From Pirellulales bacterium (lineage in GTDB: Bacteria > Planctomycetota > Planctomycetia > Pirellulales > JADZDJ01), in assembly GCA_963719205.1 (NCBI GenBank), contig CAVRAW010000005.1, positions 280,958-344,957 on the forward strand: a stretch of 64,000 bases of DNA, read 5' to 3'. A program made the translations under genes and the position numbers. Every line of letters begins with the position of its first letter. Position 1 is the stretch's first letter. Below are positions 3,534 through 43,966 of this stretch, piece by piece. The notes beneath the pieces are model-generated. The model was given only the letters and a program-made list of their open reading frames with translations, had not been told where the DNA came from and searched no databases.

Positions 3534-4220
3534 TCACCCGAACCGATATCGAATGATGCACCACAACGCCCGCACGCCATCGACCCACCCGATCTTTTTC
3601 CCCTCTTCGCGCGTCCGCGCTCGATATCGGATGGGCCGTTCCACAATCCGAATGCCCGGAATCTTCACCACTCGCGCCGAAAGTTCGATTTCCACCCCAA
3701 ATCGACTATCGATCAATTGCGGCGCGACCTTCTGAATGATCTCGCGGCGAAAAACCTTGTAACACGTCTCCACGTCGGTCAGTTTGACCCAATACACCCA
3801 GTTGAACACTCTCGTAATAATCCGGTTCGCCCAATACGTAGTATTCGAAATTTGCGAATCGGCCCCCTTCATGAAGCGGCTGCCGTACACCACGTCGGCC
3901 GCGCCGCTCGTGATCGGCTCCACCAGCGCCGAATAATCCCCCGGATCGTATTCCAAATCGGCATCCTGCACGATCACCAAGTCCCCCTTCACCGCCGCAA
4001 AGCCGGTCTTCAACGCATCCCCCTTGCCGCGGTTTTCCGGATGCCGCAACACGCGCACGTTCGCCTGGCACTCCAGATGCTTCAGCGACTCATAAGTGTT
4101 GTCGCTGCTGCCGTCGTCGACGATCACCAGTTCGTGCTCGATCGGCGTCTGCTGGATGACTTCCACCACCTGCCGCGCAGTCTCCGCTTCGTTATAAACG
4201 GGGATTACAATAGACAGCAT
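3534..4220 (-). CDS. family 2 glycosyltransferase (polyprenyl-phosphate sugar synthase-like)
   Basis: IVIPVYNE, VDDGSSDNT and the DxD-type QDADLEYDP motif. The length (228 aa) is typical of GT2 Dpm1/GtrB-like enzymes. Confidence 0.85.
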   Translation of the reverse strand: MLSIVIPVYNEAETARQVVEVIQQTPIEHELVIVDDGSSDNTYESLKHLECQANVRVLRHPENRGKGDALKTGFAAVKGDLVIVQDADLEYDPGDYSALVEPITSGAADVVYGSRFMKGADSQISNTTYWANRIITRVFNWVYWVKLTDVETCYKVFRREIIQKVAPQLIDSRFGVEIELSARVVKIPGIRIVERPIRYRARTREEGKKIGWVDGVRALWCIIRYRFG

Positions 4221-20472: not shown

Positions 20473-20480
20473 ATTTGTTC

Positions 20481-20511
20481 CGTCGTTTAGCCCCGGGCTC
20501 GCCCCGGGGGT
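20481..20511. repeat. GC hairpin element family A, copy 1, immediately upstream of the argC start
   Basis: CGTCGTTTAGCCCCGGGCTCGCCCCGGGGGT; 7-bp stem CCCCGGG/CCCGGGG with a 5-nt loop; 29/31 nt identical to 21272..21302. It ends 8 nt from the argC ATG on the minus strand. Confidence 0.8.
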
Positions 20512-20643: not shown

Positions 20644-21274
20644 TCACTTGATCAACTGTTTCTCGATCAAGCCAAACAACTCCCAGGCCACCTGCTCCTT
20701 CGCGCCGGCGATCGTCGCAATTGCCTCGCCGGTCCGATCCAGCACCTCCACGTTGTTCTCCGCCGAGCCGATCGCCTGCGGGCCATTGAGAACCATCAGA
20801 TCGCAACTCTTCTTTTGCATCTTCGTAATGGCGCGGAATCGCTGGTCCTCTGTTTCCAGTGCAAACCCCACGACCCATTGATCCGGCCGTTTGCCCGAAG
20901 CCAGCGTGGCCACGATGTCCGGCGTTTCCACCAGATGCAGCACCAGCGGCTCCCCCGTCTTCTTGATTTTCTGCTCTTCCACTCGAACTGGGCGATAATC
21001 ACTTGGCGCCGCAATGCCGATCAGCCCGTCGCATTCCGGGAATAGCTTCTGGCAAGTGGCGAGCATTTCTTCAGTCGATACCACAGCCACGACACGACAG
21101 ACTCTCGGATACGAAACTTCCACAGGGCCTGAAACAATCGTGACTTGATGCCCCGCATCCACTGCCGCTTGCGCAATCGCCTGACCCATCCGCCCGCTGG
21201 ACGCATTGGTCAAATACGCGCACCGGATCGAGATGCTGCCGCGTGGGTCCCGATGTAATCAGAATGCGCGCCAT
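20644..21274 (-). CDS. coaB: phosphopantothenate--cysteine ligase, frame broken near 21216
   Basis: MARILITSGPTRQHLDPVR (ORF 21071..21274) continues in ORF 20644..21213 as YLTNASSGRMGQAIAQAA.. once one extra base is removed. The rest matches the CoaB domain of Dfp. Confidence 0.85.
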
Positions 21275-21302
21275 CGTTTAGCCCCGGGCTCGGCCCGGGG
21301 GT
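21272..21302. repeat. GC hairpin element family A, copy 2, spanning the coaC stop and coaB start
   Basis: CATCGTTTAGCCCCGGGCTCGGCCCGGGGGT. On the minus strand it reads ..CCCCCGGGCCGAGCCCGGGGCTAAACGATGG, supplying the last 6 sense codons and the TAA stop of coaC and the ATG of coaB. Confidence 0.8.
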
Positions 21303-26332: not shown

Positions 26333-26793
26333 GATGCGTTAGCGAAGTGCCGAATGAGGAGATTGCCCGGCGACAGGCGTTTCCCCTGTGTACTGGAACG
26401 AATTCGATTTCTCAATGATATTTCGCAATTTCCCGCCGTTCGCGCGCATTCTCGGCGCATTAACTCGCCTTCTTAATCCCGCCGCCGGCAAAACCCCTTG
26501 CACCGCCGGCCAACCTTCCCGCCAAACCGTGCCAATCTGGCAGCCCTTATCTTCTCCTCAAAGATAGGTCCGCCCCCATTTTTGGCAGCCTCCTCGCCAC
26601 AATCCCCACCGCATCCTACACTTACGAAACGGCCACCTCGCCGGAAACCCCCGGCACGGCCTTTGCTTTCTTTCCGTAAGTCGTTCTATCCGACAGTCAT
26701 TCTCGCAGTACGTACATCAATCGCAATTCTAACCGGCAATCGTTGGCCCTTTGATGGCCGCCAACCACACGCCGAAATAACAAGGAGTTGTTC

Positions 26794-28719
26794 ATGGCCT
26801 CCGGCGAAAAAATCATCGGCATCGATCTCGGCACCACCAACTCCGTCGTTGCAGTGATGGAGGGCAAAGAAGCCAAGGTCATCCCCAATCAAGAAGGCAA
26901 CCGCCTCACGCCGAGCGTCGTGGCCTTCACCGACAAGGGCGATGTCCTGGTCGGCGAACTCGCCCGTCGTCAGGCCGTCACCAACCCCAAGAAAACCGTC
27001 TACTCGATCAAGCGCTTCATGGGTCGCCGCCACAGCGAAGTGGCCAGCGAAGAAAAGATCGTCCCCTACCAGGTCGTTGGCGGCGCCGAAGACTACGTGA
27101 AAGTCAAGGTCGGCGATAAAGAATACACGCCCCCCGAAATCTCCGCCCGCATCCTCCGCAAGCTGAAGGAAGCGGCCGAAGCCTACCTCGGCCACAAAGT
27201 AAACAAAGCCGTCATCACTGTGCCGGCCTACTTCAACGATTCCCAGCGTCAGGCCACCAAAGACGCCGGCCAAATCGCCGGCCTCGAAGTCGCCCGCATC
27301 ATCAACGAACCCACCGCGGCCGCGCTGGCCTACGGCCTCGATCGCAAAGAACACGAAAAGATCGTCGTGTTCGATCTCGGCGGCGGCACGTTCGACGTCT
27401 CCGTCCTCCAAGTGGCCGACGGTGTGTTCCAAGTCATCAGCACCAACGGCGACACGCACCTCGGCGGCGACGATTTCGACCAGGTCCTCATCAACTACGT
27501 CGCCGACGAATTCAAAAAGGAAAACGGCATCGATCTCCGCAAAGACCCCATGGCCCTGCAGCGCCTCCAGGAAGCCTGCGAAAAGGCGAAGAAAGAACTC
27601 AGCTCCGCCAGCAGCACCGACATCAACCTGCCCTTCATCACCGCCGATGCCAGCGGCCCCAAGCACCTGCAATTCAACATCACCCGCAGCAAGTTCGAAC
27701 AATTGGAAGATTCGCTCTTCGAACGTTGCCGCGGCCCGGTGCAGCAGGCTCTCAAAGACGCCAAGCTCGAACCCAAAGATATCGACGAAGTCGTCCTCGT
27801 CGGCGGCTCCACCCGCATCCCCAAGGTGCAGGAGCTCGTCCAAAAAATGTTCGGCGGCAAGGAACCGCACAAGGGCGTGAATCCCGACGAAGTGGTCGCC
27901 GTCGGCGCTGCCATCCAGGGCGGCGTCCTCGCCGGCGAAGTGCAAGATGTGCTCCTGCTCGACGTCACCCCGCTCTCGCTGGGCATCGAAACCGAAGGCG
28001 GCATCTTCACCAAGCTCGTCGAACGCAACACCACCATCCCCACCGAACGCAAGCAAGTCTTCAGCACCGCGGCCGACAACCAATCCGCCGTCACCGTGGT
28101 GGTCTACCAGGGCGAGCGCCCCATGGCCCGCGATAACCGCGAGCTCGGCCGCTTCAACCTGGAAGGCATTCCGCCGGCCCCGCGCGGCATGCCCCAAATC
28201 GAAGTCAAGTTCGACATCGACGCCAACGGCATCGTCAGCGTTACCGCCAAAGATTTGGGCACGGGCAAAGAAGCCAAGGTCCGCATCGAAAACGCCAGTT
28301 CCATCCCGAAGGACGAAATCGAAAAGATGCGCCGCGACGCCGAATCGCACGCCGAGGAAGACAAACGCAAACGTGAACTCGCCGAGTTGCACAACCAAGG
28401 CGAATCGATGGTCTTCCAATTGGAAAAGATGATCAAAGAGCAAGCCGACAAGTTGAAGGAATCCGACAAGGCCGCCTTGGAAAGCGCGATGGGCAAAGTC
28501 CGCGATAGCATCAAGGGCGATAACGCCGACACCATCAAATCCGCCATCAGCGAACTTGAACAAGCCTCGCACGCCTTCACCAAGCAGTTGTACGAAGCCG
28601 CACAAGCCGCAGCCGGCGGCGCCGCAGGCGCAGCTCCCGAAGGCGCCCCCGCCGGCGACGGCAAAAAACCCGGCGAAGAAGAAGCCATCGACGCCGAATT
28701 CGAAGTCAAGAAAGAGTAA
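26794..28719 (+). CDS. dnaK: molecular chaperone DnaK (Hsp70)
   Basis: AAGGAG lies 6 nt upstream of the ATG at 26794. [18 protein letters not shown] and [10 protein letters not shown]; 641 aa. Confidence 0.97.
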
Positions 28720-28748
28720 TCGACCCAACCGGTCGGCAACACATATTT

Positions 28749-28779
28749 AGCCCCCGGTGATAACACCGGGGGCTTTTTG
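28749..28779 (+). terminator. rho-independent terminator downstream of dnaK
   Basis: Perfect 11-bp stem AGCCCCCGGTG / CACCGGGGGCT with loop ATAA, followed by TTTTT, 30 nt after the dnaK stop. Confidence 0.8.
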
Positions 28780-28807
28780 CTTTACCTCTCACCCCTCACT
28801 CCCACCA

Positions 28808-31552
<2,745 letters not shown>

Positions 31553-31577
31553 CCTTTGGTCAGTTCATGGAGGATTC

Positions 31578-32238
31578 ATGACGGTAAAAACCCAATCGGA
31601 AGCAGCATTCGAGCAAGCTTGTCGCTCCTTCGGTATCAAGATCGAACCAATCCCACGTGCCGTCAACCAATCGCCCGACTGCAAAATCTACCTCTCGGGC
31701 AACTTGGTTTATGCTGAAGTCAAACAATTTGACCTGAACGAAGCCGAAAAACGCGCGTTAGAGGAAATGCGATCCAAGGGCTGTAGCGCATACTGGCCGA
31801 GAGAAGATTGGCGAATCCGATCGAAAATCCATGAAGCGAACTCACAATTAAAATCCCTGACCGAGAGCAAATATCCCGGGGTGGTGATCCTCTTTGTCGG
31901 TTCGTCTATTGGAAGTTTCGACTCTGAGGACATCCACGCGGCGATGTATGGAAGCGAATCCTGCAGTTTTGCGGTCCCAAGAAACGGTGCCGGGGAAACT
32001 GTGCCTCTCGGAAGCGTCGCTTGCTCCAAATGGCACATGTAGAGCTCAAAGGCATACGACAACCAGTGCCGTTGTTTCGCTTTGGCGACTAGACACATCG
32101 CAATTCCGCATGAATTTCTATCACAACACTTTCGCGAAGAACCCGGTCACACCCGACTGGTTGCGGTGTGATGGAATTCAACACTTCACATCAAAACGGC
32201 CCGACGAAAACAAGCTCCCTAATTGGGTGGCGATTTGA
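31578..32238 (+). CDS. hypothetical PD-(D/E)xK nuclease-like protein, frame probably broken near 32025
   Basis: GGAGGA lies 3 nt upstream of the ATG at 31578. SEAAFEQACRSFG..SPDCKIYLSGNLVYAEVKQ fits the E...PD...(D/E)xK restriction-endonuclease-fold pattern. The ORF stops at 32042, but the overlapping frame continues plausibly (..TSAVVSLWRLDTSQFRMNFYHNTFAKNPVTPDWL..) to 32238. GC is visibly lower than in the flanks. Confidence 0.5.
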
Positions 32239-32266
32239 TAGGACGATTATCTAAAAAAGGGAATTT

Positions 32267-33154
32267 ATGCAGGACGTAGAAAAATACGCGCCGCCGACAG
32301 AGACTCTGGGCGATCAAGTGCATGCAGTCGCACGTGCCGCACTAGGCGCAATACCGTATGCGGGAAACGCGGCTTGTGAGCTGCTCCAAAAGATCGTCGC
32401 GCCGCCGATCAAAATACGAATTAACGACTGGATGGAAAACATAGCCGACGGTCTCAAGAGACTTGAAAACGAGCAACGGTGTAAAATCGAAGACCTTGGC
32501 AAAAACGATGCGTTTACGGACACGATTATGTATGCAACGCAGGCGGCCGTGCGCACATCCAAAGACGGAAAGCGAAAGGCCCTCCAAAATGCAGTGTTAA
32601 ACTCTGCCCTGCCAAATCCACCGGACGAGACCTCGAGACAAATGTTCTTGTCATTGGTAGACACCTTCTCCGAATTGCACTTGCGTTTCCTCGCAATTTT
32701 TCAGGACCCGCCAAGCTGGCTTGCGGCAAACAACAAACCCATTCCTACTAGAGAATCAAGGACGCTGTGGGAGCTTGTGTCATACATATTTCCAGAATTG
32801 AAGGATCAGCGAGCAATAGCCGAACAAGTCTGCAAGGAATTGCATAACCGTGGATTATTGATCGCTGCGTCTTTGAACGAGGAAGTTTCTCGCTACCCTT
32901 ACTTTCCAACTAAACCAATCGAGCAGCAACCCGGATACTACTTCGCAGAAACCCCTGGAATTGGAAATGTCGTTTATTCCGGAAGTCATTCCGCTTTAAG
33001 ACCGTGGACAACCGAACTGGGGAACCAGTTTTTAGCGTTTATATCATCGCCAACCGAACAGCAGCCAGTCACCCTTGCTTCTCGCGCCGGGTGCCATACC
33101 CACGCTCTAGCGTGGGCATGTGACGTCGTCCTGGCTTCCTGCTTTCCTAATTGA
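32267..33154 (+). CDS. hypothetical protein (295 aa), no family recognised
   Basis: Clean ORF in the low-GC islet, 28 nt after the previous gene. Helical N-terminal half (..KRKALQNAVLNSALPNPPDETSRQMFLSLVDTFSELHLRFL..). The last ~12 codons are encoded by a palindromic repeat element. Confidence 0.55.
   Translation: MQDVEKYAPPTETLGDQVHAVARAALGAIPYAGNAACELLQKIVAPPIKIRINDWMENIADGLKRLENEQRCKIEDLGKNDAFTDTIMYATQAAVRTSKDGKRKALQNAVLNSALPNPPDETSRQMFLSLVDTFSELHLRFLAIFQDPPSWLAANNKPIPTRESRTLWELVSYIFPELKDQRAIAEQVCKELHNRGLLIAASLNEEVSRYPYFPTKPIEQQPGYYFAETPGIGNVVYSGSHSALRPWTTELGNQFLAFISSPTEQQPVTLASRAGCHTHALAWACDVVLASCFPN
33094..33119. repeat. palindromic repeat element family B, copy 2
   Basis: CATACCCACGC-TCTA-GCGTGGGCATG, an 11-bp stem with one mismatch, forming the 3' end of ORF 32267..33154. 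Confidence 0.75.
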
Positions 33155-33579
33155 ATCTCGGCTTCTCCGCGCCTCCATGTCTCTGCGGTTCACAATGTTT
33201 TCTGCGTCAAGCCCCGAATTGGCCACCTAGAAATTGGGCCAGCGCCTGTCCTAAACAACACCCAGACGATGCGGCCATCGATATCAGCCAAAGTAGCAGG
33301 ACCGACATAGGAAGTCGCGTCAATGGCGTGCCGACATCGGGAAACCTTTCGCCGCCTGAGGCCGGAGGCAATTCCTCCGGTACACTGAAAGTTCGCTTTC
33401 AGTGCTTTGCCGTGCCACGGGGTTATCGTGCGCGGAACAACAACTCGAGGCGGTCACCATCAGGTACTAACCCAGGGGCTCGTCCGCCAATGTGGCGCGT
33501 CGGGCAGGCAAGCAGCGTGAGCGTGGACTCCGTTCCCGTCACAAGCTTGTCGGCGACGGCTGTTGCAAGTGTAGAAACT

Positions 33580-33615
33580 CCTCTCCCTTTAAGGGAGAGG
33601 CCGGGAGAGGGTAAC
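33580..33615. repeat. hairpin repeat element family D, copy 2
   Basis: CCTCTCCCT-TTA-AGGGAGAGG (9-bp stem) followed by CCGGGAGAGGGTAAC. Confidence 0.7.
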
Positions 33616-33792
33616 GCCTCGCGCGCTATCCGTCTTCCATGCAACCTACGCCCCGTCGCATTTTGAATTCGGCCGGCCCCAACCCTACCGAATGGCCCGA
33701 CCCGCCACGGCGGACGAGCGCCAAATTTTTTTATTGCGACTTTTTGTGCTTTTCGTGGCAATCGCCGCCAATGCCCCTCCGCGCACACATCT

Positions 33793-33876
33793 AACTTGAA
33801 ACATGCAACTTGAAACCTGAAACCCCTTCCGCCTTCCTACTTCCTACATCCTAATTCCTACTTCCGACTTCCACGC
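33793..33876. repeat. phased heptanucleotide tandem array (12 units)
   Basis: aacttga aacatgc aacttga aacctga aacccct tccgcct tcctact tcctaca tcctaat tcctact tccgact tccacgc. Strict 7-nt phase over 84 nt, ending 17 nt before the ATG at 33894. Confidence 0.8.
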
Positions 33877-33893
33877 ATGACCTAAACTTGTCC

Positions 33894-34400
33894 ATGCCCC
33901 TGCACACCCTCGTACTGACCTTCCACATCACCTGCGGCGTCATCGCCCTGACGCTCGGCCTGATCGCCATGGCCGCCGAAAAATCCCGCGGCCTGCACAC
34001 CTTCGTCGGCAACGCCTACCACTGGGTCTACGTCGCCCTGGCAACTTCCGCCTGCGGCGTGGCATCCTTCGATTGGCCGCGGTTGTGGTGGTACGTCCCC
34101 ATCGCGTTGGGATCCTACTCGCTGGCGCTCATGGGCTTCCTCGCCGCCAAAATCCGCTGGAACAATTGGCTCCAGTCGCACCTCTCCGGCCAACTCGGAT
34201 CGTACATCGCCATGACCACCGCGGTGCTGGTCGTGAACTTCGGCAGCGTCTGGTGGGCCTGGATCACTCCCACGATCATCGGCTCGCCGCTAATCGCCTG
34301 GCTCAAGCGCGAAGTCCGCGCCGGCCACCGCCCCAAATACAAATCCACAATCGAGAACACGCTCGCCACGTCCTCGCGAGAATTGCAGCCCGTCAATTAG
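33894..34400 (+). CDS. hypothetical integral membrane protein (4-5 TM)
   Basis: ATG at 33894. Hydrophobic helices LVLTFHITCGVIALTLGLIAMAA, WVYVALATSACGVASF, YVPIALGSYSLALMGFLAA, LGSYIAMTTAVLVVNF and WAWITPTIIGSPLIAWL. Confidence 0.6.
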   Translation: MPLHTLVLTFHITCGVIALTLGLIAMAAEKSRGLHTFVGNAYHWVYVALATSACGVASFDWPRLWWYVPIALGSYSLALMGFLAAKIRWNNWLQSHLSGQLGSYIAMTTAVLVVNFGSVWWAWITPTIIGSPLIAWLKREVRAGHRPKYKSTIENTLATSSRELQPVN

Positions 34401-34574
34401 CCCGCCTGCCCGTCGTTCTGTCGTGGTACGAATCGCCGCCGCTCCGTGTCTCTGTGCCTCCGTGGTTAAGTGCGAGCGCAAAAAAATAGCCCCCGACGAT
34501 TTCTCGCCGAGGGCTAAACAACATCCGTGTAATTCCTCTGCCTGTCCTGAGCAGTCAGATTCAGGTAATTGCGA

Positions 34575-35714
34575 TCAGTCGCGGCCGCGCCGCCCACTGG
34601 CCAGCCGGCCGAGGCCTTTCACATCCAGCGTGCCGGTGATGGTCGTGTCCACGCTAATCGCGCTGCCGGCGGTCGGCGTGACCGACACATTCGTCAGCAC
34701 CGCATGGCCGTTGCCATTAACATCGGTATCGATCGTCCCGACCACCGTGCCGTCGATCGCCACGTCGAGCGTGCTACCTGCCGCCGCGCCGCGCACGTTC
34801 ACGATCAACTTGCTATCGACCGAGCCGTCGCTAAGCGTCCGGCTCAAGAAGATCGCCGTGCCGGTCGCGCCGCTGGCCGAGTCGCTCAGCCGCGAGCGCA
34901 AATGCAACACCGATGTCACCTCGGGGGCAAGCGCAAACGTGCCGGTGGCATCGCCAACGGCAATCGTGCTGCCTTCATTCACGGTGATCGCCGCATCCTT
35001 GAGCACGAGCGACCCGTTGCCGTTGGCATCGGTGCTGATCGTGCCGACAGTGTTGCCGTCGATCATCACAGCGATATCGGTGCTGGCGGCCGTGCCGTTG
35101 ATTGTCACCACCAAGTTCGATTCGGTGTTGCCGTCCTCGGTTTCACTCTTGAACGAAGCCGTGCCGGTCACCGCGCCGGTGGTGTCGGTCAACTGGGTCG
35201 TCAGCTTCACTTCATTTTCATCACCTTCATCATGGCCGGCGGTGCGCACTGCCAAATCGCCAGTGGCAGTGCCCACGGCCACGGTGTCGCCGGCTGCGGG
35301 AGTAACGGCCAAGCTGCCTTTGAGCGCAATTGCGCCCGATCCGCTATCGTCGGTCATGATGGTGCCGACGGCCGTGCCGTTAATATCCACTTCGTAGGGC
35401 GTGTTGGCCGCGGCGCCTTTGATGTTGGCGGTCAACACCGAGGTGGTTGTGCCGTTGTGAGTAATGCTGGTGAACGACACGTGGCCGGTCACGTTGGCAT
35501 CGTTCGGATCGCTGAGCGTGGCGCTCAAAAACGTTCCTTGAATGCTGGCCGAGCCGGCAAGGCGCGACGACGCCAGCACCGCAATATTCGACGTGTCATG
35601 ATGCGAAGCCGCGATGCTCAAACCGGCGGTCACACCAGCGGCGACCGAGCAACCCGACAACATACTGCGCGACTCAAGCTGTTCGAATGCGCGCACAGGC
35701 GAAGAACGTAACAT
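34575..35714 (-). CDS. secreted protein with three ~95-aa tandem domain repeats
   Basis: N-terminal FEQLESRSMLS motif, common at the start of planctomycetal exoproteins. Three repeats follow the pattern L..L.D....TG.A.F.S........L...I.GAAA.T..V.I.G..VGTI.TD..G.G...L.....T...G..I.V...TG. The opposite-strand ORFs look like GC shadows. Confidence 0.65.
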   Translation of the reverse strand: MLRSSPVRAFEQLESRSMLSGCSVAAGVTAGLSIAASHHDTSNIAVLASSRLAGSASIQGTFLSATLSDPNDANVTGHVSFTSITHNGTTTSVLTANIKGAAANTPYEVDINGTAVGTIMTDDSGSGAIALKGSLAVTPAAGDTVAVGTATGDLAVRTAGHDEGDENEVKLTTQLTDTTGAVTGTASFKSETEDGNTESNLVVTINGTAASTDIAVMIDGNTVGTISTDANGNGSLVLKDAAITVNEGSTIAVGDATGTFALAPEVTSVLHLRSRLSDSASGATGTAIFLSRTLSDGSVDSKLIVNVRGAAAGSTLDVAIDGTVVGTIDTDVNGNGHAVLTNVSVTPTAGSAISVDTTITGTLDVKGLGRLASGRRGRD

Positions 35715-36066
35715 GGGGATCCTCCTCTGTTCACAAAGTTCCGTTGACCGCTGGCCACTTTCTGTGGGTTCCGAGTGCTCTGTTCACCCGGCGAGTGGCG
35801 CTGGATCGGCCTTGCCTCTGGCACATTCCCTATAGCAAACCGCACGTCACTTGTGGAAGTTGCCGCGGAATTTTTTCCGAGAAAAGATTCCGTGCATGTG
35901 CAATGACCAGCGGCGTGGTCAAGATAGATAAGCCGCGAGATTTGCAGATAAAGAATATCGCAGAAAAGCTAGTTCTTCCGAGGCATGCCAACGGCATGTG
36001 GAAATGCGCCGCGAGATATTTGATCGCCCGCGCCCTGAACCGCAGCCTGCCAGGCTGAGCGCCAAA

Positions 36067-36261
36067 TTAACGCTTGCGCTCGTCCAAGCCAAGAGTGGAG
36101 ATGATCGTTTCCGCGCCAGGCGTCATGCGGCGAAGCTTATCGGCGATGTTCGCCTTTTCCGAAACGGTGGCTTTCTTCAGCTTCCGCTGAAAGACGACCA
36201 GCTTCTTGCGCCGCCGGCGGCGCCGCTTGATTTCCTGCTTCCGATCGCTGATGCCACCCAC
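36067..36261 (-). CDS. small highly basic hypothetical protein (64 aa)
   Basis: GTG at 36261 gives MGGISDRKQEIKRRRRRRKKLVVFQRKLKKATVSEKANIADKLRRMTPGAETIISTLGLDERKR. Lys/Arg-rich, like ribosome- or nucleic-acid-associated small proteins. Confidence 0.5.
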   Translation of the reverse strand: MGGISDRKQEIKRRRRRRKKLVVFQRKLKKATVSEKANIADKLRRMTPGAETIISTLGLDERKR

Positions 36262-36333
36262 GTGTAGGCTCCTGGGGTCAAAGTGATCTGCTTTTGTAAC
36301 ACGACCGCCATGAAACGTCAACGCATAACGAGG

Positions 36334-36424
36334 AATGACCGATGACCAGTTGCCAATGACCCGCGACAGATTGACCGTTGCCGCCTGTTGGTCACTGGGT
36401 TTTGTTCATTGGTCATTCTGATTA
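36334..36424. repeat. inverted pair of heptamer arrays (AATGACC-type)
   Basis: Left arm: aatgacc gatgacc agttgcc aatgacc. Right arm: ggtcact gggtttt gttcatt ggtcatt, which is the reverse complement of aatgacc aatgaac aaaaccc agtgacc. Confidence 0.65.
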
Positions 36425-36479
36425 GCCCCGAACATTTGACACTTTCCGCTGCTCAAAGCTACAGTTGCGCTATCTTGCC

Positions 36480-36516
36480 GGACGGGTGGCCGAGCGGTTT
36501 AAGGCACCGGTCTTGA
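36480..36516 (+). tRNA. truncated tRNA-Ser(UGA) 5' half (acceptor stem to anticodon), copy 1; not a functional tRNA
   Basis: GGACGGGTGGCCGAGCGGTTTAAGGCACCGGTCTTGA matches the class II tRNA-Ser 5' half (acceptor GGACGGG, D-arm GCC-GAGCGGTTTAA-GGC, anticodon stem CCGGT, loop CTTGA..). The sequence after the anticodon is unrelated: no ACCGG return strand, no T-arm, no CCCGTCC. Confidence 0.75.
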
Positions 36517-36649
36517 TGGCCGAAGCGGCCTGCCCACTGCCGTTCGGAGTCGGATGCGCGATCCGCTTCGGTGGTCGTTGGACTGCGCTAAGGCCCAAGC
36601 GAGCTACAACGCGTCAAATCGCTCGACCAACGATTTATTGGTCCTGGAA

Positions 36650-39010
36650 ATGGAAAATTCCTCTACTTCTACTACGCCACGACAGTCGGGATTTCGCGTG
36701 GTTGCCGCAGGCGCGTTGCTTGCTTTGGCAACCATCGTGGTCTATTTCCCGTCCATGCACGGCGGATTTCTGTTCGACGATGATCAGTTGCTGACGAACA
36801 ACCCACTGATCAAGGCCCCGAACGGCCTCTTTCGTTGTTGGTATACAACCCATCAGTTGGACTATCTGCCCCTTACCATTTCGACGCTGTGGCTGGAATG
36901 GCGACTATGGGGGATGGATCCCACCGGCTATCGTGTTACCAATTTGCTGTTGCATATCGCGGCATGCTTTCTGATTTGGACAGTGTTGCGACGACTATCG
37001 ATTCCCGGCGGATTCCTCGCAGCACTTCTATTTGCAGTTCACCCGGTCAATGTCGAAAGCGTTGCTTGGATTGAGCAACGCAAGAGCACGCTTTCGCTGG
37101 TGCTCTTCTTGCTGTCCATTCTATGGTACCCGATCGACGAGCCGGATCGCGAAACCAGGAAACATGCGTCGGCGTTGGGCGTCGGGCGATGGTACTGGCT
37201 TAGCCTGATGGCGTTCACCCTGGCGATGTTCAGCAAGGGCTCCGCTGCTATTTTGCCGTTCGTATTGCTTTTGATCGTGTGGTGGCGGCGCGACAGGATC
37301 ACGAAACCCGATGTGCTGCGCAGTGCCCCGTTTTTTTTGGTGGCCGCGGTCTTCACGCCGATCATCATTTGGTTTGTTGCGCACGGCGCGACGACGACGA
37401 TTCGCGAACTGACGTTTGGCCAGCGTGCGGCCTGCAGTGGAACGGTCGTGTGGTTCTACCTGTGCAAGGCATTGATTCCAATCCGCCTGTTGTTTGTCTA
37501 TCCGCAATGGCAAATTGACGCTGACAATCTGCTGTGGTGTTTGCCGTTGTTGGCGTCGTTCGTCATCACGGCGGAGTTGATCGGGCGGCAAAATCACAGG
37601 TGGATTCGGCCGATCTTGTTTGCTTGGGCGTCGTACTGTATCGGGCTCAGGCCGGTGCTGGGGTTCACCGATCCAGGCTATATGAGCGTAGCGGCGGTGG
37701 CCGACCATTACCAATACATTTCTTTAATCAGCATCACCGCACTGGCGGGCGCCGCTTGGTACAGGTGGCACCAACATGCTCGGAATATGATCCTTACGAT
37801 GACCGCCGCCACGACGGCAGTGGGCATACTTATGTTTTTGACGTGGCAACAAAGCCAGCTATATGCGGATCCGATTGTGCTGTATGAAGCCACCTTGGAG
37901 CACAATCCCGATTGTTATTTCATCCATAACAATTTGGGCGCAGAGCTCGCAAAGTCCGGCCGCTCGCAAAACGCAATCGGACATTTCCAAAAGGCGATTC
38001 GGTTAAAGCCGGATTACGCCCTGGCACACTTCAATTTGGGGGAAACGCTGCTCGCGTCAGGTCGAGCAGAAGGTGCGATCGAACATTATCGACAGGCGGT
38101 CCGCTTCCAGCCCGATTTTACCTTGGCGTATCATAATTTGGGCAATGCGTTGCGCGATACCGGCCACATCCAAGAGGCAATCGAGTCTTATGAGCGTGCG
38201 ATAGCGCTTGCACCGGCGTTCGCGACCGCTCACTTCAATCTTGGAATTGCCTTGATGCAGGAGCATCAAATCGACAAAGCGATCGAGCAATTCCGACTAG
38301 GCTTGCATTTTGATCCCGACAATGCTGCAGCGCACCACCAGCTTGGCAATGCTCTGCGTGCCGCACACCAACCGCAAGAGGCGGTTGATGAGTACCTGGC
38401 GGCACTGCGATTGAAGCCGGATGATGCCGAAGCGCAAGCAAGTCTGGAAATGCTGTTGTCCGGCCGAAGCCCTGCTGAAGAACCGCTGCATAACGTAGGC
38501 CACTTGACACCGGAGGATCGAAACGCCGTTGCCGCACAATTCAATCTGGGAATTGCCCAGCTTCACGCCGGACATCCAGAAAAGGCTCTGGAGTTCTTTG
38601 AGCGCGCTTTGTCCACGAAGTCCGATATTCCCGAGGTGCAATCGGCGATGGGCGCCGCGCTGGTCATAATGGGCCGATCCCAGCCGGCGCTGGAGCACTT
38701 GCAAATCGCATTGCGACTACGGCCCGATGACGCCGATGCTCAAAATAACCTGGCGTCCGCATTAGGCGCTCTGGGTCGCACATCGGAAGCGGTGGAACAT
38801 TGTCGAGAAGCGGTCCGCCTCCGACCAGCTTTTATCGAACCCTGGAACAATCTGGTAATTTTCTACGATCAATTACGCCAGCCTGAAAAAGCTGTCGCTG
38901 CTGCTGAGAAAGTGTTGGACCTGGCACGCTCTCAGGGAAAAACTGCTTTGGCTGAGCAAATGGAGGACTGGCTGGCTGCGCACCGCGGCGCCATCGAAAT
39001 AGCTCGTTAA
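36650..39010 (+). CDS. TMTC/PMT-like GT-C membrane glycosyltransferase with C-terminal TPR array (intact)
   Basis: ATG at 36650 (MENSSTST). Multi-TM N-terminal half with a first-loop FLFDDDQLL motif, WLEWRLWGMDPTGYR, AVHPVNVESVAWIEQRKS and ADHYQYISLIS. About 11 TPR units follow (AIGHFQKAIRLKPDYALAHFNLG etc). Confidence 0.85.
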   Translation: MENSSTSTTPRQSGFRVVAAGALLALATIVVYFPSMHGGFLFDDDQLLTNNPLIKAPNGLFRCWYTTHQLDYLPLTISTLWLEWRLWGMDPTGYRVTNLLLHIAACFLIWTVLRRLSIPGGFLAALLFAVHPVNVESVAWIEQRKSTLSLVLFLLSILWYPIDEPDRETRKHASALGVGRWYWLSLMAFTLAMFSKGSAAILPFVLLLIVWWRRDRITKPDVLRSAPFFLVAAVFTPIIIWFVAHGATTTIRELTFGQRAACSGTVVWFYLCKALIPIRLLFVYPQWQIDADNLLWCLPLLASFVITAELIGRQNHRWIRPILFAWASYCIGLRPVLGFTDPGYMSVAAVADHYQYISLISITALAGAAWYRWHQHARNMILTMTAATTAVGILMFLTWQQSQLYADPIVLYEATLEHNPDCYFIHNNLGAELAKSGRSQNAIGHFQKAIRLKPDYALAHFNLGETLLASGRAEGAIEHYRQAVRFQPDFTLAYHNLGNALRDTGHIQEAIESYERAIALAPAFATAHFNLGIALMQEHQIDKAIEQFRLGLHFDPDNAAAHHQLGNALRAAHQPQEAVDEYLAALRLKPDDAEAQASLEMLLSGRSPAEEPLHNVGHLTPEDRNAVAAQFNLGIAQLHAGHPEKALEFFERALSTKSDIPEVQSAMGAALVIMGRSQPALEHLQIALRLRPDDADAQNNLASALGALGRTSEAVEHCREAVRLRPAFIEPWNNLVIFYDQLRQPEKAVAAAEKVLDLARSQGKTALAEQMEDWLAAHRGAIEIAR

Positions 39011-39094
39011 CGCTTGCCCGACAACTTGGCCAGTCTGGTTTGAACGATACCTGCCAAATGACTCCAAACATACGAAATGCTATAACCAATTGCC

Positions 39095-39133
39095 CGGACG
39101 GGTGGCCGAGCGGTTTAAGGCACCGGTCTTGAA
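39095..39133 (+). tRNA. truncated tRNA-Ser(UGA) 5' half, copy 2; not a functional tRNA
   Basis: Same 37 nt as copy 1 plus two further loop bases (CTTGAAA), then unrelated sequence. It shares a 39-nt identical block (CCGGACGGG...GGTCTTGA) with copy 1. Confidence 0.75.
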
Positions 39134-39870
39134 ATCGATTTTGCACGATCGGTAGTGCGATCAAGAAAACGCTAATTCACTCGGCAAATCTTGGACAATT
39201 GTCGCTTCGATCGCAAGTGATGGATTGGGCAAAAACGTGGCAATAAATGGCACTTGCGGGTGTCAGTGACACCCGGTCATCGCGGGTGATCCGTCTGTTT
39301 GAATTTGCGGCGCACGGTGAGGGAGCAATCGTGTCATCAAGCAAATCCCCCTAAGTCAGTAGAGTGCAATACTGGCAGAAGCCCGGGAAATGATCCAGAT
39401 AAAAGCCACCTACACCGACGGATTACAGCGAGCTACGGCGTTTCGGCACGTTGGCTCCGTGATTTCCAGCGTCCTTCACCGGCACAAGATGGCGTGTCAG
39501 CTTCGGCCCGGGGATCACGTTTTCACGGAGAGCCCTGAGACACCTAGCATCGGGAAAATTCGCGTCGTCAAGAAAATCGAGAATGTCTTTGACTACTAGG
39601 CTGGCCGCTGGACGATTACCGTCGACCACCCGTCAGGTGAGAATATGCCAGCGGAAAAAGGCCCTGACTCGGATGATATTCACTTTCACTTTGTGTCTCA
39701 CGATCCCGAGGTAAAGCGAAAGCGTGCAAGAATTCCGTCTGTTTGGCTTTCGATTGCCAGCCACAAGCTGTGCCACGAAGCCACCATGCTGCAGACACGA
39801 TTCGGCTCGGACGACAAAATGTCTCTCCCGCGAGCGCGTGTATCATATCGAAGCGAAGCGCTGCAGCTAG

Positions 39871-41985
39871 CTATTCGGGTAACAAGCCCAGTTGAAGCCA
39901 TCCGCGGTCGACGTGCGCATGGGCGACACGAAACCGCTCTCTTCGATCGGATGCAGTCGGCAACGAGAATCGCGACCATACGAGCTCCTCAGCGAGGACC
40001 TTTCCCAGCGTGCGCTGCACGACGGTTCGCAACGCTTGTTGTCGGCCGCTTAACGGCGACTCGTATCCCTCCTCGTATGATAGCGTCTTGACCTTTAGAG
40101 CGCCTTGTCGGATTAGTGCGAGACCGCCGTCTCGTTCCTGGACGTTGTATGTCGCATCGACCATCATCGGCGGGTATTTCACGTCGCCTGATTCGAACGA
40201 TTCGATATGGAATCTGGCGCGGATCTGACCATCGACCAGTTCGGCAGTGCAGGGACGTTTTGAAAACGCAATGTTAAAATTTTGACCGGTATACTTCGGC
40301 GCGGCGACTCGCCAAGCGCTTCGTCGATCACTTGGATCAACTCATTCGCCGTCATTCGACGGCCGCTGAACGCAGTCGTTACAAGACTTTCCAGGGCGGA
40401 TGCGGCGCAGCAGACGAAGACATCCGAATGGCCGTCAAAATCCTGCGTCGGATCGTGATCTGGAATCGAATTGAAACCTACCAGAATCGCTTCCCAAGTC
40501 AGCGCGCCACCCGAGGTCTTTACACGGATCTCGGGAGTTGGCAGATTTGCATAGATGATCGGATCGCGGAACCTTGCGAAATACCACCGATTGAAAGCGT
40601 CGGCGAGTTTTTGGCCTTCCGCGTCCAACCGCGAGGTGACTGAATGGCGAGCCGCGGCTGCACTTTCAGCTTCTGCCATCGGCCGGCGAGCATATGTCCG
40701 CCGAACGGCCTCTTTACGACGGCGGCGGAGTCCGCGAGCGGCGATGTCGGTGTAGACGATGTTCGTCATGGCGCTCGCCTCAGCGGGCCGGGGAACGAGC
40801 CCACGTGCGTCAAGCGTGAACGGCTTGTCACCGGCGAGCGAAGTAGTGGCGCGACTACTCACTCGGACGCCTTCACTGTAGGCGGTGGTCGAGGCGTTGA
40901 CAGTTCCATCGAGTCGCACGGTCAGCCTTCCGACCGCGCTGGACGGAATGGCCTCCAGGCGAGATTTGCCGTGCATGCGACCGGTGCCGAAGGTGCTGGC
41001 GCCCCCGTACACGCCCTGAATCGGATACTGTTCGTCGAGCGACTTCGCCAGATGCGACGCTAACCAATCGGTTCGCAACACGACGATGAGGTTGGGGTGT
41101 GAAAACTTGCGGTAGATGGAGGCAGTTAAGGGTGTCGCCTGACCGAGTCGTTCGCGCTGATTGACGGCGTCAATGATCCTGGTTGCATCCGTTCCGGAGT
41201 CGGACGCGGAAGCGCTCAGCAATTCGGCCAGGTCGTCCCACGCCGACGCGTATTGCGCCGGGGTTTCGTGCGCCCGACGCCCGCGCACTAATGGTATCAG
41301 GGACCGGACGGCCAGAGAGGCCTCGATCAATTCGGCCGCATCCCAGACATCGGCCGCATTGTGCCAGCGCGTTTCTAAAGCGTCGAGCTCTAAAGCATCG
41401 GGGGGGCTGGCGGTCGAAGCGCACGGGCTTCCGGCCAATGCAGGTACAATCTCCACGGATCGTCGGTGCGCCGCAACTGGGGAAATCGCCGTTCTAGGGC
41501 ATCCAGGCGCTCAGTGACCCGCGCTGCGCCTGCCTGACTTCATTGTCCGAGATCGGCGCGTAGGAACGTGCCTTTTGGTGGCACAATTCGGTCCACTGGC
41601 TTTCGGGTATGGGCGTCAGCTCCTGGGCCCGCGCTTCCAGGGCGGTTGCGAGTCGCTGGAACGCTTCCCCGCGAAATTCAGACATGCTCGCCGTGCGCAA
41701 TCGTTCAGCCGCTGAGGCCAAGGGCGCGGGCTCGGCGCGGTTTCCAGCACGTAGCTCTTGCGTTGCGTCGTCCAGATCAAGTTGACGCGTCAGATTGCCC
41801 CACACCGGTAACTGCCCCGTCGTTTGTCGCAGTTGGCGGATTGTAGCCCGTGCATCGCGTGCCGACTGGGTATCGATCTGAGCGCAGGCTGGCTGTTGTA
41901 GAAATCCAAGAGTTAGCAGCGCCATCACGAAAGCAACGGAGGGATCGCGACTCAACCTTCGAGCGATGGATTGCAGCATTTTCAC
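39871..41985 (-). CDS. large hypothetical secreted protein (~700 aa), frame broken about 3 times
   Basis: Signal peptide at 41985 (VAFVMALLTLGFLQQPACAQ). ORFs 41494..41985, 40179..41456 and 39871..40182 connect through short alternative-frame stretches (..LDALERRFPQLRRTDDPW.. and ..ELVDGQIRARFHIESFESGDVKYPPMMVDATYNV..). Shifts lie near 41500, 41415 and 40250. No family recognised. Confidence 0.5.
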
Positions 41986-42006
41986 AGCAGATTGCAGTTC
42001 AGTAGG

Positions 42007-43895
42007 CTACGGTAACGGGGAAGTACTCTTGCGCACGACACCCAATTCGACCTTCCAGCCATCATCAGTCAGCGACAGGAACATTCCGGCCTCCGGCATG
42101 GCATCTCGCAAACGTTCGTATTGGGGCACCGTCGAATATGGCAGTGCCTGAGATCGTTCCGTCGTGCCGTAGAAAAGCAATCGCCAGAGATTGGTCAAAA
42201 GGTCGTTTTCGTCGGCCGTCTCAGCATCGGTCGCGGCAGATCGGTAGGAGTCCGCCAACACTTGATCGAGGTGCATGAGCCCCCGCATGCAGTTTGCGAG
42301 TTTTCCTGTCGCTTGATCCATTTGAGCAATGCGGACCAGGCAGCTGAATCGGCGAGCCTGGATCCACTGACGTTGCTCGAGATCGTCGATGTCAAAAAAT
42401 CGACGTCAGGTCCAAACAACAGCTTTCCTTGGCCGATCGCTAGCGCCTCGCACAGTGACCACTGAAGTGCTTTCCCCTTCGACAAAAAGCGATTTTCCTT
42501 TGGGAACCGTCCATAGTTCATAGTTTCCCAAACTGCCATTACTTACAGTTTTATCTCTTGCGTAGAATCGTTTCAGCGCGTTTGCGACCGTCTCTGGTTC
42601 TCTAATGCCGGCAACAAAGAGCCAACGTTCACCAGTGGCCTGGCCTGCCGATGGGTGCTCACGATTCTCAATGGGGCGGACACGAACGACGTCAGGGGTC
42701 AATTGTGCGAACACCTCGCGTCGCAGATCGACTTTGACGCCTTCGGGATCCTCGTGAATCCCATTCAGCATGTCCTCAAACATTCCCTCGCCATCTGGGC
42801 CGGGCTGGTTCATATCGTCGAAGAGATTTCCAAAGCCTTTCATTGCCGTGGGAAAATCCCATCGCCAGAACCAAACGCTCGCTACGTCGTCGCGGACCCA
42901 GTCAGGAACGATGGGAAACGCGCCGGGTTGCAGTTCCAGCAATCTCATTGCGGAACGATAAGGTCGAGGGGCGCGGAACTCGGCCCGCAAATCCCACTCG
43001 CAAGGTTTCGGCGCCTCGAATTCCAAGTGACCCGCAATGGATTGCACCGCGTCGAAGCCTAAACGACGAAATCGCGTTGTTCTGGAGTCGGCGTCCTGAT
43101 TGCGCTTTGCGGCGACGAGCTCCCACAATTCAATAGGACGAATAAAGAAGTTGACGTGCTGCTTGCTTGTGGGATTGCGGTCGGCATCGGCTAGAAAGGT
43201 CTTTCGGAACGCTTCTTGGTCCGTGAGGGAGTGGCCGGATCTGACATTCAGCAGTGCCTCGGCCGCCGCCGGAGAATTGGCGACACCGTAGTATCGGCTG
43301 CCAATGAACAGCACTCGCTGCGATTGCGAATCCTGTGTCGTCGGGAGTGCGAACACAGCCACTGCGACGTCGCCGACTTGGTGGGTCGATTTCTGATATC
43401 CCTGCCCACGGAAGTAGCGTTCTGCCGCAAGCAAGCATGGCGGGGTTTGATCGAGCGCGGTGGTGGAGGTAAACAGCCACGCTATGCCAACCGAGCGATT
43501 TTCCAGCGGAAAGATCACGAATCCGCCAGGATCACGCACCTGGAGCAGATCGCTCCAGTTCATACCGATCGCCGGGGCGGATTCAGTGGACCGGCCAGGT
43601 TGAGCCGCCCCAGCTCGCCAGCCAAGAGCGAGAAGTCAGGACCACACAGTTTTGCCCCGAAGCTCGATTTCTCGAAGAGATGACAACTAGCGCCAACGTT
43701 GGAGCAGAACGCTGCCAAGCAAGCATTTCCGGGCATGTAATCGGCTAAACCACCAGGCGATTGAGCGTGGCCAACGTGCGCAGCTAACGAAAGTGCCAGC
43801 ACGATGCACACCGCGAAGTATCGCGGAACAGTTCCACGGGCTCTGATTCGTGTCGCAAATCGTTGAATCGCCGCGGTTCTTGACATGCCACACAT
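42007..43895 (-). CDS. large hypothetical secreted protein (~630 aa), frame broken 2-3 times
   Basis: Signal peptide (YFAVCIVLALSLAAHVGHAQS). ORFs 43560..43895, 42406..43563, 42195..42539 and 42007..42321 join as ..VVTVRGA|LAIGQGKLLFGPDVDFL.. (near 42445) and ..AAWSALLKW|MDQATGKLANCM.. (near 42322). The first junction (near 43590) could instead be an ATGA-coupled gene boundary. Confidence 0.5.
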
Positions 43896-43966
43896 TATCT
43901 GCGCTCATGGACGGGTCTGCAAGCTAGGATAAACAGCTAACATGGACTAAATAGGCATACTATTCC

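Follow-up and report, generated by a model that had tools for sequence, protein, structure and literature searches.

The E. coli pangenome has yielded two anti-phage systems that each consist of one 'nuclease' gene, PD-T7-5 and PD-T7-1 (Vassallo et al. 2022; PMC9519451; PMC10952713), and for PD-T7-5 the authors' HHpred analysis ranks Hjc first, at residues 63-107 (PMC9519451 supplement). Here we describe a locus directly behind the heat-shock gene clpB in the window, by which we mean the whole 64-kb stretch of DNA that was analysed, whose first gene (gene 1) belongs to a family comparable with both: its members are likewise stand-alone proteins with distant PD-(D/E)xK similarity, but at ~220 aa they are far shorter than the PD-T7-5 and PD-T7-1 models (346 and 452). 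The alpha-beta-beta-beta-alpha-beta core predicted for gene 1 is that of Hjc, RecU, XisH and the Bax1 nuclease domain, a group that makes up a large share of its Foldseek top list. The catalytic residues reported for Pyrococcus Hjc are E9, D33, E46 and K48, a spacing almost equal to that of E8, D34, E47 and K49 in gene 1. Hjc lacks, however, the conserved C-terminal ~100 residues that the gene-1 family adds; the family has no detectable sequence similarity to any PDB chain, and its patchy, island-borne spread misfits a housekeeping resolvase.

The second gene (gene 2) falls in PHROG 26838, a phage family without an assigned function, so that membership supplies no mechanism; among the sequences compared, the window copy alone bears a 29-residue non-homologous tail. 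In its foreign composition, in the tight packing of unrelated singletons and in having relatives on phages, on plasmids and in a Vibrio cassette array, the locus resembles both small islets of defence or accessory genes and the 'moron' genes of phages; unlike them, it gave no recognised defence system with PADLOC models for either protein. Our preferred explanation, to which we give a probability of roughly 0.7, is that an ordinary acquired fragment of ~50% GC sits behind clpB and carries two unrelated, independent single-gene cargo genes, not a cooperating pair. Its present condition is best read as decay.

A low-GC islet directly behind clpB

Starting immediately behind the stop codon of clpB (31550-31552) and reaching to the end of gene 2 homology, the window holds a 1.5-kb islet of foreign composition (31553..33065) with a GC content of 49.8%, flanked by richer sequence on both sides (0.558 over the final 600 nt of clpB, 0.575 at 33066-33887, against 0.498 within). 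Measured in 300-nt steps, GC lies at 0.46-0.52 from ~31550 to 33150, as against 0.57-0.69 in dnaK and clpB. The span 31560-33160 has a GC content of 50.3%, compared with a mean of 58.5% (sd 2.3%) over all 1600-nt segments of the 64 kb (z = -3.55); no other segment of this length in the window is poorer in GC. Genes 1 and 2 have the lowest GC (0.51) among its 52 long ORFs, and their third codon positions depart in the same direction (GC3 0.52-0.56, against 0.76-0.79 in dnaK and clpB and a window mean of 0.67). The initial annotation had described a GC drop across two co-oriented genes after clpB, had called the islet compositionally foreign and had suggested a compositional check; both descriptions stand after the comparison of GC and GC3.

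The left border is tight. Between the clpB stop and the ATG of gene 1 at 31578 lies a plus-strand spacer of 25 nt (31553..31577) that contains a GGAGGA ribosome-binding site just upstream of the start; it is too short for a terminator or a promoter, and no terminator-like or sigma-70-like site was found in it. Across the islet, searches for tRNAs, Rfam families, terminators and promoters returned nothing. Nor do the islet borders carry direct repeats of at least 8 nt such as att or target sites would leave, and inspection by eye of the listed ORF translations from 27000-37000 and 39100-45300 revealed no integrase or transposase, in agreement with the earlier statement that none accompanies the pair. 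The islet deviates from its host in composition and shows no flanking repeats or recognisable mobility genes; in lacking any attC, att site or integrase it is unlike small defence or accessory islets.

Comparison with relatives of the host is limited to distant ones, the best ClpB C-terminal identity being 78% in genome_contigs and 69% in metagenome_contigs. Pirellulales relatives that keep dnaK-clpB (full-length ClpB ~58-72% identical) do not have the two genes downstream. In one of them (L014) a homolog of window orf84 follows clpB within ~100 nt; in the window orf84 lies at 36067-36321, 4.5 kb downstream of clpB. Composition, together with this one distant comparison, suggests that the islet is accessory.

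Gene 1, a frameshifted member of a nuclease-like family

Gene 1 is distributed over two plus-strand frames. Frame A (31578..32042) encodes the N-terminal ~148 residues, which are PD-(D/E)xK-like, and is ended by a premature TAG at 32040-32042; its translation is the 154-aa product of the public annotation (P0001) and scores E = 8e-49 against the family HMM. Frame B (32023..32238, with its stop at 32236-32238) encodes the C-terminal ~70 residues, carries the family motifs (H/N)TTxSAV, YHNxFAxNP and a terminal W, matches the HMM independently (E = 1.9e-23) and aligns with the C-termini of 57 full-length relatives. Because the two halves belong to one and the same family, whose intact members are all single ORFs (for example one in L011), gene 1 is, by these alignments, evidently interrupted by a +1 frameshift near residue 145. 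The shift, one extra base or two missing, is placed in the interval 31985..32031 on the plus strand, where both frames are open and no homopolymer run occurs; a family-conserved Gly (32032-32034) already lies in frame B. Programmed +1 frameshifting at the TAG is unlikely, given that this Gly upstream of it is already in frame B and that the relatives are single ORFs. The 28-nt gap originally reported between the two genes is correct only if gene 1 is read through to the stop at 32236-32238; gene 1 is not a single ORF.

The catalytic signature survives in the N-terminal half. The motifs SEAAFEQ, SPD and AEVKQ, with 13 residues from D34 to E47, are present in gene 1 and conserved in the family, giving E8, P33-D34 and E47-V-K49-Q50; over 58 sequences D34 and E47 never vary, and E8, K49 and Q50 are each found in at least 95%, while among the 57 relatives E8 and K49 are each kept in at least 96%. 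Both gene 1 and its family therefore carry a PD-(D/E)xK catalytic signature. The AlphaFold model of gene 1 shows the alpha-beta-beta-beta-alpha-beta core, albeit from a 3-sequence alignment and in one good model of five, the other four being poor (pTM 0.69; core pLDDT 74-87; mean pLDDT 66.7). Its elements run in the order helix 6-17, strands 21-24, 35-39 and 42-51, helices 55-66 and 77-95, and strand 101-107. Residue E8 sits on the first helix, D34 at the second strand, and both E47 and K49 on the third strand. The top Foldseek matches in the PDB are mostly PD-(D/E)xK nucleases, all weak and none at E<=0.001, in a list comprising Bax1, R2 endonuclease, BstEII, XisH, SfsA, Hjc, RecU, DdmD and FokI; the family profile had no meaningful match in a PDB sequence search, and the Pfam DpnII-MboI REase model was weakly matched by 5 of the 58 family members. 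Taken together, motif and model give moderate support to a Hjc-like PD-(D/E)xK nuclease core in the N-terminal half, and the restriction-endonuclease-fold signature first noticed in the letters proves to be invariant in a large family with a canonical predicted order of elements. The C-terminal half of the family has motifs of its own, NTxSAV and YHNxFA.

Run against 5.8 billion proteins, a first sequence search with gene 1 returned just two homologs, each ~35% identical or less; an exhaustive profile search returned 1,228 clusters (at 50% identity) at E<=0.001. Most of the best 150 of these 1,228 clusters are 210-240 aa long and match most of the profile, describing a family of stand-alone proteins of ~220 aa that occurs in bacteria and archaea. 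It is unnamed and has no Pfam or PADLOC model: the window protein itself matched nothing in Pfam, NCBIfam or PADLOC, and in PHROGs it had two non-significant matches (E>0.1). Members sit in ORFan islands beside integrases, transposases and toxin-antitoxin genes; one of them, P0061, had no match in cultured phage or plasmid records. No methyltransferase gene adjoins gene 1 in the window, where it is preceded by clpB and followed by gene 2, and the precomputed Pfam matches of neighbours in 6 contexts include no methyltransferase domain; the absence of an adjoining DNA methyltransferase gene in these contexts speaks against a restriction-modification system.

The kinship with the two E. coli systems emerges at the level of the family. 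The PADLOC PD-T7-5 model is matched by 45 of the 58 members (best 6e-7) and the PD-T7-1 model by 30 of 58 (best 2.5e-8), in weak and partial alignments of 10-25 bits that mostly span 30-45 residues. For the relatives and the family consensus they cover ~279-323 of the 346 PD-T7-5 positions and ~391-434 of the 452 PD-T7-1 positions, so that neither profile is matched at near full length. Family and models have the C-terminal YHNxFAxxPL motif in common, joined in some members by the PD...EVK region. Window gene 1 had no match to the PD-T7 models at E<=10 and, unlike PD-T7-5 and PD-T7-1, is frameshifted; the likeness is one of the family. Distant relationship to PD-T7-1 and PD-T7-5 is the explanation that best fits these matches.

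Intact members of the family are predicted to be Mg2+-dependent DNA endonucleases that would act alone against invading DNA. The window gene is most likely dead, because its sole product would be truncated and would lack the C-terminal third that the family conserves. Its catalytic residues are intact, and it differs from the consensus at 5 of 34 conserved columns (family mean 2.0, maximum 6). P0002, next in identity to gene 1 among the initial homologs (35%, in L001/L002), is disrupted too: its codon 149 is an in-frame stop, suggesting that family members decay readily. Two other relatives, P0023 (42%) and P0026 (40%), are nearer to gene 1 than P0002 is.

The frameshift could instead be an assembly error, and the islet would then be a live mini defence islet with two independent single-gene defences transcribed by read-through from clpB. 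Gene 1 would in that case be an active stand-alone PD-T7-5-like nuclease, as its intact catalytic and mostly intact conserved positions would allow; the short distance from the clpB stop without a terminator, the strong GGAGGA, the resemblance of the family to validated single-gene defence nucleases and the accessory positions of gene 2 relatives in phages, plasmids and a Vibrio cassette array are all in keeping with such an islet. We nevertheless consider it unlikely: the frameshift interval offers no homopolymer of the kind that typically produces sequencing indels, P0002 is disrupted as well, the public annotation has the same truncated product, and a defence role stays a prediction for either family.

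Gene 2 and the proposed module

Gene 2 (32267-33154, plus strand) is intact and encodes 295 aa. Residues 1-266 (32267..33065, plus strand) are homologous to the PHROG 26838-like family and all-helical; the C-terminal 29 residues (33066..33154, plus strand, GC 0.596) are absent from homologs. Searches gave 19 homologs, 33-52% identical over aligned segments, and all 18 that were aligned stop at the residue ~266 boundary. The AlphaFold model is all-helical with a pLDDT of 78.9, falling below 50 over residues 267-295. Because the tail has host-like composition and is absent from homologs, we read it as flanking DNA, probably reached by read-through after the original stop was lost.

The window protein matches phrog_26838 at E = 1e-4 (23 bits, residues 18-146), as do all 19 homologs (best E = 1.2e-15), and so belongs to that family; beyond a weak DUF7172 match, the family scans gave it nothing else. 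Its model found no fold match in the PDB or BFVD, and the family profile no meaningful match among PDB sequences. Kinship with Abi_alpha (PF14337) was rejected: neither the window protein nor the family consensus gives any match to it, and a single homolog of 19 matches weakly (E = 0.0055). DUF6616, weakly matched by 4 of 19 homologs and not by the consensus, was likewise set aside, and weak, scattered matches of the consensus to PADLOC PtuB, Cmr4 and DruE were taken as noise. Relatives occur in a cultured Pseudomonas phage (OQ658365), beside a recombinase gene, on 8 IMG/VR viral contigs and on 12 plasmids, and one lies in a plasmid gene run of Vibrio europaeus interspersed with DUF3265 ORFs, which we read as an integron-type cassette array. 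The initial annotation was right about the length and helical nature of gene 2; its description as an orphan gives way to membership of a family borne by phages, plasmids and cassettes. By context gene 2 would be a typical accessory 'moron' gene, possibly with a role in defence or superinfection exclusion.

What had been proposed for the two genes was a nuclease-plus-unknown defence or toxin module, to be abandoned if they were never co-located elsewhere. In a census of 32 loci, about 22 independent contexts, gene-2 relatives were present in 0 of 12 loci bearing a gene-1 relative (6 independent), and gene-1 relatives in 0 of 20 loci bearing a gene-2 relative (16 independent); no adjacency is conserved in unrelated genomes, and neither family has a conserved neighbour in the loci examined. 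A small conserved partner upstream of gene 1 was considered and dropped, the ORFs of 102-106 aa in L001 and L182 being unrelated. Because the families never co-occur and neither keeps a conserved partner, the two-gene module is unsupported. Its fullest form, a two-component anti-phage or toxin-antitoxin (addiction) module in which the nuclease would act as effector or toxin while gene 2 would supply its sensor, regulator or immunity partner, would fit two co-oriented genes 28 nt apart with equal foreign GC, the first nuclease-like, and loss of a toxin with retention of its partner is a known decay route of such modules. We regard it as very unlikely and already largely refuted: against it stand the absence of co-occurrence, the occurrence of both families as singletons among unrelated neighbours, the frameshift in gene 1, a gene 2 much bigger than typical antitoxins, and the outcome of the PADLOC check, in which neither window protein matched a recognised defence system.

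Probable acquisition and decay, and surroundings

That the genes are native and vertically inherited with odd composition, for example a Hjc/RecU-like housekeeping resolvase and a structural helical protein, is the least probable account, for although the residue spacing is Hjc-like, Hjc is among the Foldseek matches and the islet has neither mobility genes nor att sites at its flanks, the two genes have the lowest GC and GC3 of all 52 window ORFs, the first search found so few and such distant homologs of gene 1, its family keeps to ORFan islands with mobile and toxin-antitoxin genes, gene 2 relatives ride on phages and plasmids, and the Pirellulales relatives carry dnaK-clpB without the pair. 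Under the preferred explanation, a small horizontally acquired fragment would have lodged directly behind clpB, bringing genes 1 and 2 as independently mobile cargo; because both share the same GC, we infer that they arrived in one event. The stop of gene 2 would have been lost at the right-hand junction, extending the frame by 29 codons into host-like DNA, and the islet would be transcribed by read-through from clpB.

The locus itself matters little, being probably decaying acquired DNA whose two-gene arrangement is not a conserved unit. A modest by-product is the gene-1 family as such: it is sizeable, it has no model, and its compact PD-(D/E)xK-like proteins combine a very clean catalytic motif with a distinctive C-terminal signature. 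Its distant link to two E. coli defence nucleases that are validated but unexplained in mechanism could help to show where the functional core of PD-T7-1 and PD-T7-5 lies. A second is a helical family that recurs at accessory sites on phages, on plasmids and in a Vibrio cassette array. Either family could be entered at little cost in screens for single-gene defence against phages. A bolder and rather doubtful proposal is that the gene-1 family comprises unrecognised, widespread minimal single-protein anti-phage nucleases, stripped-down kin of PD-T7-1 and PD-T7-5, and that PHROG 26838 is likewise a new protein for single-gene defence or superinfection exclusion; the window would then show one gene of each kind parked behind clpB and possibly co-transcribed with it.

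No DnaA-box cluster was found near a GC-skew switch. The repeats said to follow the islet are present in part: 'family B' and 'family D' were not reproduced as multi-copy elements within the window, and the heptamer arrays were found downstream at 33793-33824 and 33833-33872, preceded by perfect hairpins at 33383-33404 and 33580-33600.

Composition and borders of the islet behind clpB

Downstream of the co-oriented dnaK (26788-28719, plus strand) and clpB (plus strand, stop codon 31550-31552), GC content falls to 0.46-0.52 in 300-nt windows over ~31550-33150, compared with 0.57-0.69 in both flanks. At 50.3%, the GC of 31560-33160 is the global minimum of the 64 kb (z = -3.55 against the mean of 58.5%, s.d. 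2.3%, of all its 1600-nt windows), confirming the drop that the initial annotation had judged by eye; it is real, and chance fluctuation is excluded. Codon usage agrees: the two ORFs of this islet, gene 1 and gene 2, have the lowest GC among 52 long ORFs, and their GC3 of 0.52-0.56 compares with 0.76-0.79 in dnaK and clpB. Since GC and GC3 are alike in the two genes, the simplest reading is that both arrived in one event from a donor with ~50% GC.

The right border of the islet is placed at ~33065 by the tail of gene 2 (33066-33154), whose 29 residues occur in no homolog, are modelled with pLDDT <50 and have a host-like GC of 0.596; gene 2 evidently lost its original stop where the acquired DNA ends on the right. 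The islet is not flanked by att-like direct repeats of >=8 nt, and, in keeping with the earlier report that mobility genes are absent beside the pair, reading by eye through the ORF translations from 27000-37000 and 39100-45300 revealed no integrase or transposase.

The window looks like DNA of a Pirellulales-type planctomycete; its closest ClpB relatives come from Pirellulaceae and Pirellulales metagenome-assembled genomes (MAGs), at ~66-72% identity over the full length and 71-78% over the C-terminal query segment; no close relative of the genome was found in the collections searched. Distant relatives keep dnaK-clpB, and what follows differs. The only downstream synteny marker found is an 84-aa, very basic ORF (36067-36321, minus strand; RRRRRRKK run), which has a homolog of 49% identity (3642-3833) ~100 nt or less after clpB in L014, a distant Pirellulales MAG locus, and lies 4.5 kb away from clpB in the window. 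In L014 and in a second Pirellulales clpB locus, L013, a tRNA-Ser(TGA) gene sits close behind, adjoined in L014 by an integrase. Together, the differing content and the placement of these markers across distant relatives indicate that the region behind clpB is variable in the lineage.

Further downstream, two perfect 39-nt direct repeats (36478-36516 and 39094-39132; CCGGACGGGTGGCCGAGCGGTTTAAGGCACCGGTCTTGA) match the L013 and L014 tRNA-Ser(TGA) over its 5' half, as far as the anticodon, and bracket a 2.6-kb segment with one gene, for an 818-aa TPR protein (36554-39010). Neither copy extends into a complete tRNA; ARAGORN and Rfam detected no tRNA anywhere in the window, and a 3' half to match is missing from the 64 kb. 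The repeats may be an att-type duplication from integration into the tRNA gene, or a disrupted tRNA-Ser.

A nuclease-like gene split by a frameshift

Gene 1 starts at ATG 31578 on the plus strand, 25 nt past the clpB stop and with a GGAGGA shortly before it; the spacer between the clpB stop and this ATG shows neither a terminator-like nor a promoter-like site. Its first frame ends at 32040-32042 after 154 aa, matching the publicly annotated product; the +1 frame then adds ~70 residues before its own stop at 32236-32238. The initial annotation, in giving a 28-nt gap to gene 2 and referring to corrected proteins, had spliced these frames implicitly, and family evidence justifies the splice: each frame independently matches one family HMM (8e-49 and 1.9e-23), the spliced 220-aa protein lines up over its whole length, terminal Trp included, with 57 full-length relatives, and the relative at comparison locus L011 is an intact single ORF.

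The frameshift lies at ~31985-32031, where there is no homopolymer run, and marks either a pseudogene or an assembly indel; gene 1 appears to be inactivated. All catalytic residues are kept, and 5 of the 34 conserved columns differ from consensus (family mean 2.0, maximum 6), a state that fits recent inactivation or mild relaxation and is proof of neither. P0002 (35% identical; loci L001/L002, 6001-6672), the next-closest by identity among the first homolog hits, with P0023 (42%) and P0026 (40%) being closer, carries an in-frame stop at codon 149, after which homology resumes for ~75 codons. This stop and the frameshift of the window fall in one and the same variable loop, which may be coincidence or may mean that the family is readily inactivated.

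A word-indexed search of 5.8 billion proteins returned two homologs of gene 1; an exhaustive profile search returned 1,228 clusters at E<=0.001, 661 of them at E<=1e-10. The best 150 of these profile matches are mostly stand-alone proteins of 210-240 aa covering most of the profile. No Pfam domain was found among the relatives, the few named being 'hypothetical protein' from Nitrososphaera and Gammaproteobacteria MAGs. Family motifs comprise TxSExLFExFC, (T/S)PDY, (A/V)EVKQ, RxRxKI, QLK, AMYG, NTxxSAV, (Y/F)HNxxA and a C-terminal W. No sequence departs from D34 or E47; E8, K49 and Q50 are kept in >=95% of sequences.

The AlphaFold model of gene 1 (mean pLDDT 66.7, pTM 0.69; the one good model of five, from a 3-sequence alignment) runs helix 6-17, strands 21-24, 35-39 and 42-51, helices 55-66 and 77-95, strand 101-107. 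This predicted order is that of a PD-(D/E)xK core: helix 1 carries the Glu, the Asp stands at strand 2, and strand 3 bears the ExK. Foldseek gave no PDB match at E<=0.001; its top list, all above that value, consists mostly of PD-(D/E)xK nucleases, and includes Bax1, the R2 endonuclease domain, BstEII, XisH, SfsA, Hjc, RecU, the DdmD nuclease domain and FokI. The E8/D34/E47/K49 spacing is almost that of Pyrococcus Hjc (E9/D33/E46/K48). On the conserved motif, the core order of the model and the Foldseek list, we accept with moderate-to-good confidence the restriction-endonuclease fold proposed initially for gene 1.

A defensive role, also proposed then, is plausible at the level of the family, but no PADLOC model matched the window's gene 1 itself. 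PADLOC PD-T7-5 is matched by 45 of 58 family members (best 6e-7) and PD-T7-1 by 30 of 58 (best 2.5e-8), with the family consensus matching them at 2.4e-6 and 3.2e-6, respectively. The matched part is mainly the C-terminal YHNxFAxxPL, at profile positions ~290-320 of 346 in PD-T7-5 and ~400-430 of 452 in PD-T7-1; occasionally the PD...EVK region matches too. Both are validated single-gene systems labelled 'Nuclease' (Vassallo et al., PMC9519451), those authors' HHpred table lists Pfam Hjc first for PD-T7-5 (78% probability, residues 63-107; PMC9519451 supplement), and a review places both under PD(D/E)XK (PMC10952713). Because the matches cover only part of the profiles at low scores, and the proteins are much shorter than PD-T7-1 and PD-T7-5, the family does not pass as a member of either; judging from the profile matches, it is probably a distant relative, and probably works as they do.

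A mobile singleton and the question of a module

Gene 2 (32267-33154; 295 aa, intact) is wholly helical in its AlphaFold model (pLDDT 78.9, >90 for residues 50-200), as had been supposed, but it is no orphan: it has 19 homologs (180-273 aa; 33-52% identity over aligned segments), all 19 of which match PHROG 26838 (best E = 1.2e-15; window copy E = 1e-4), a group of unknown function, and relatives on phage, plasmids and viral contigs. No similar fold was found in PDB or BFVD, and the family profile has no sequence relative in PDB. Weak assignments to Abi_alpha (1 of 19 members) and DUF6616 (4 of 19) gain no support from the consensus.

In Pseudomonas phage OQ658365 the relative stands alone on the strand opposite to its neighbours, adjoining a recombinase gene. 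On a Vibrio europaeus plasmid (L101; NZ_CP053542.1, 322526-331050) it lies among short co-oriented genes and DUF3265 mini-ORFs, a run that we take to be a Vibrio integron-type cassette array, so that the family is probably spread in the form of an integron cassette. Other relatives occur on Bacillus cereus, Planktothrix, Brevibacterium and Hymenobacter plasmids and on 8 IMG/VR viral contigs. Gene 2 is a member of a mobile singleton family.

The suggestion that the two genes form a defence or toxin module did not survive a census of 12 loci with gene-1 relatives (6 independent contexts) and 20 with gene-2 relatives (16 independent), scanned with both family HMMs down to ORF fragments of 40 or 60 aa. 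Not once in these loci outside the window do the families occur together, an outcome that the initial annotation had said would refute its proposal, and an all-against-all neighbour comparison found no conserved partner within 3 kb of either; a functional module is not supported. Around gene-1 relatives, the islands are rich in ORFans, with an integrase, a transposase fragment or PIN/HicB genes close by and no adjoining methyltransferase. Most likely, then, the islet is a piece of acquired DNA in decay that carries two independent cargo genes, each a unit of its own; its main residual value is that both uncharacterised families are candidates to enter in screens for single-gene defence.

Repeats and strand asymmetry elsewhere in the window

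The non-coding stretch after gene 2 (33160-33890) holds the heptamer arrays reported initially, AACCTGA x4.6 (33793-33824) and CTTCCTA x5.7 (33833-33872), together with perfect hairpins at 33383-33404 and 33580-33600 and a third GGGAGAGG arm at 33603-33610; the repeat families B and D also named there were not recovered as multi-copy elements, and no further copies of the elements of this stretch were found within the window. Rfam found no match in it. At ~35000-37000, GC skew changes sign and cumulative skew reaches its minimum, and the prevailing ORF orientation changes from minus in 1-25 kb to plus in 43-64 kb. The switch may mark an origin of replication or the site of a rearrangement; no DnaA-box cluster was found (5 near-matches in the window, 6.3 expected).

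A 32-nt repeat, 94% identical between its copies (20480-20511 and 21271-21302), lies just outside each end of ORF 20647-21189; it contains a GC-rich palindrome (CCCCGGGCTCGCCCCGGGG) and resembles a hairpin of the REP or terminator type. A 408-nt unit stands three times in tandem (60858-61973; 99% and 86% identity, 300 nt compared) within a 926-aa ORF (60374-63151), a repeat-domain protein gene. Internal repeats of ~300 nt, in three copies of 70-72% identity, also occur in a 379-aa ORF of native-like GC, 0.63 (34575-35714, minus strand), whose N-terminal 'FEQLESRSMLS' motif we take to be typical of secreted planctomycete proteins.
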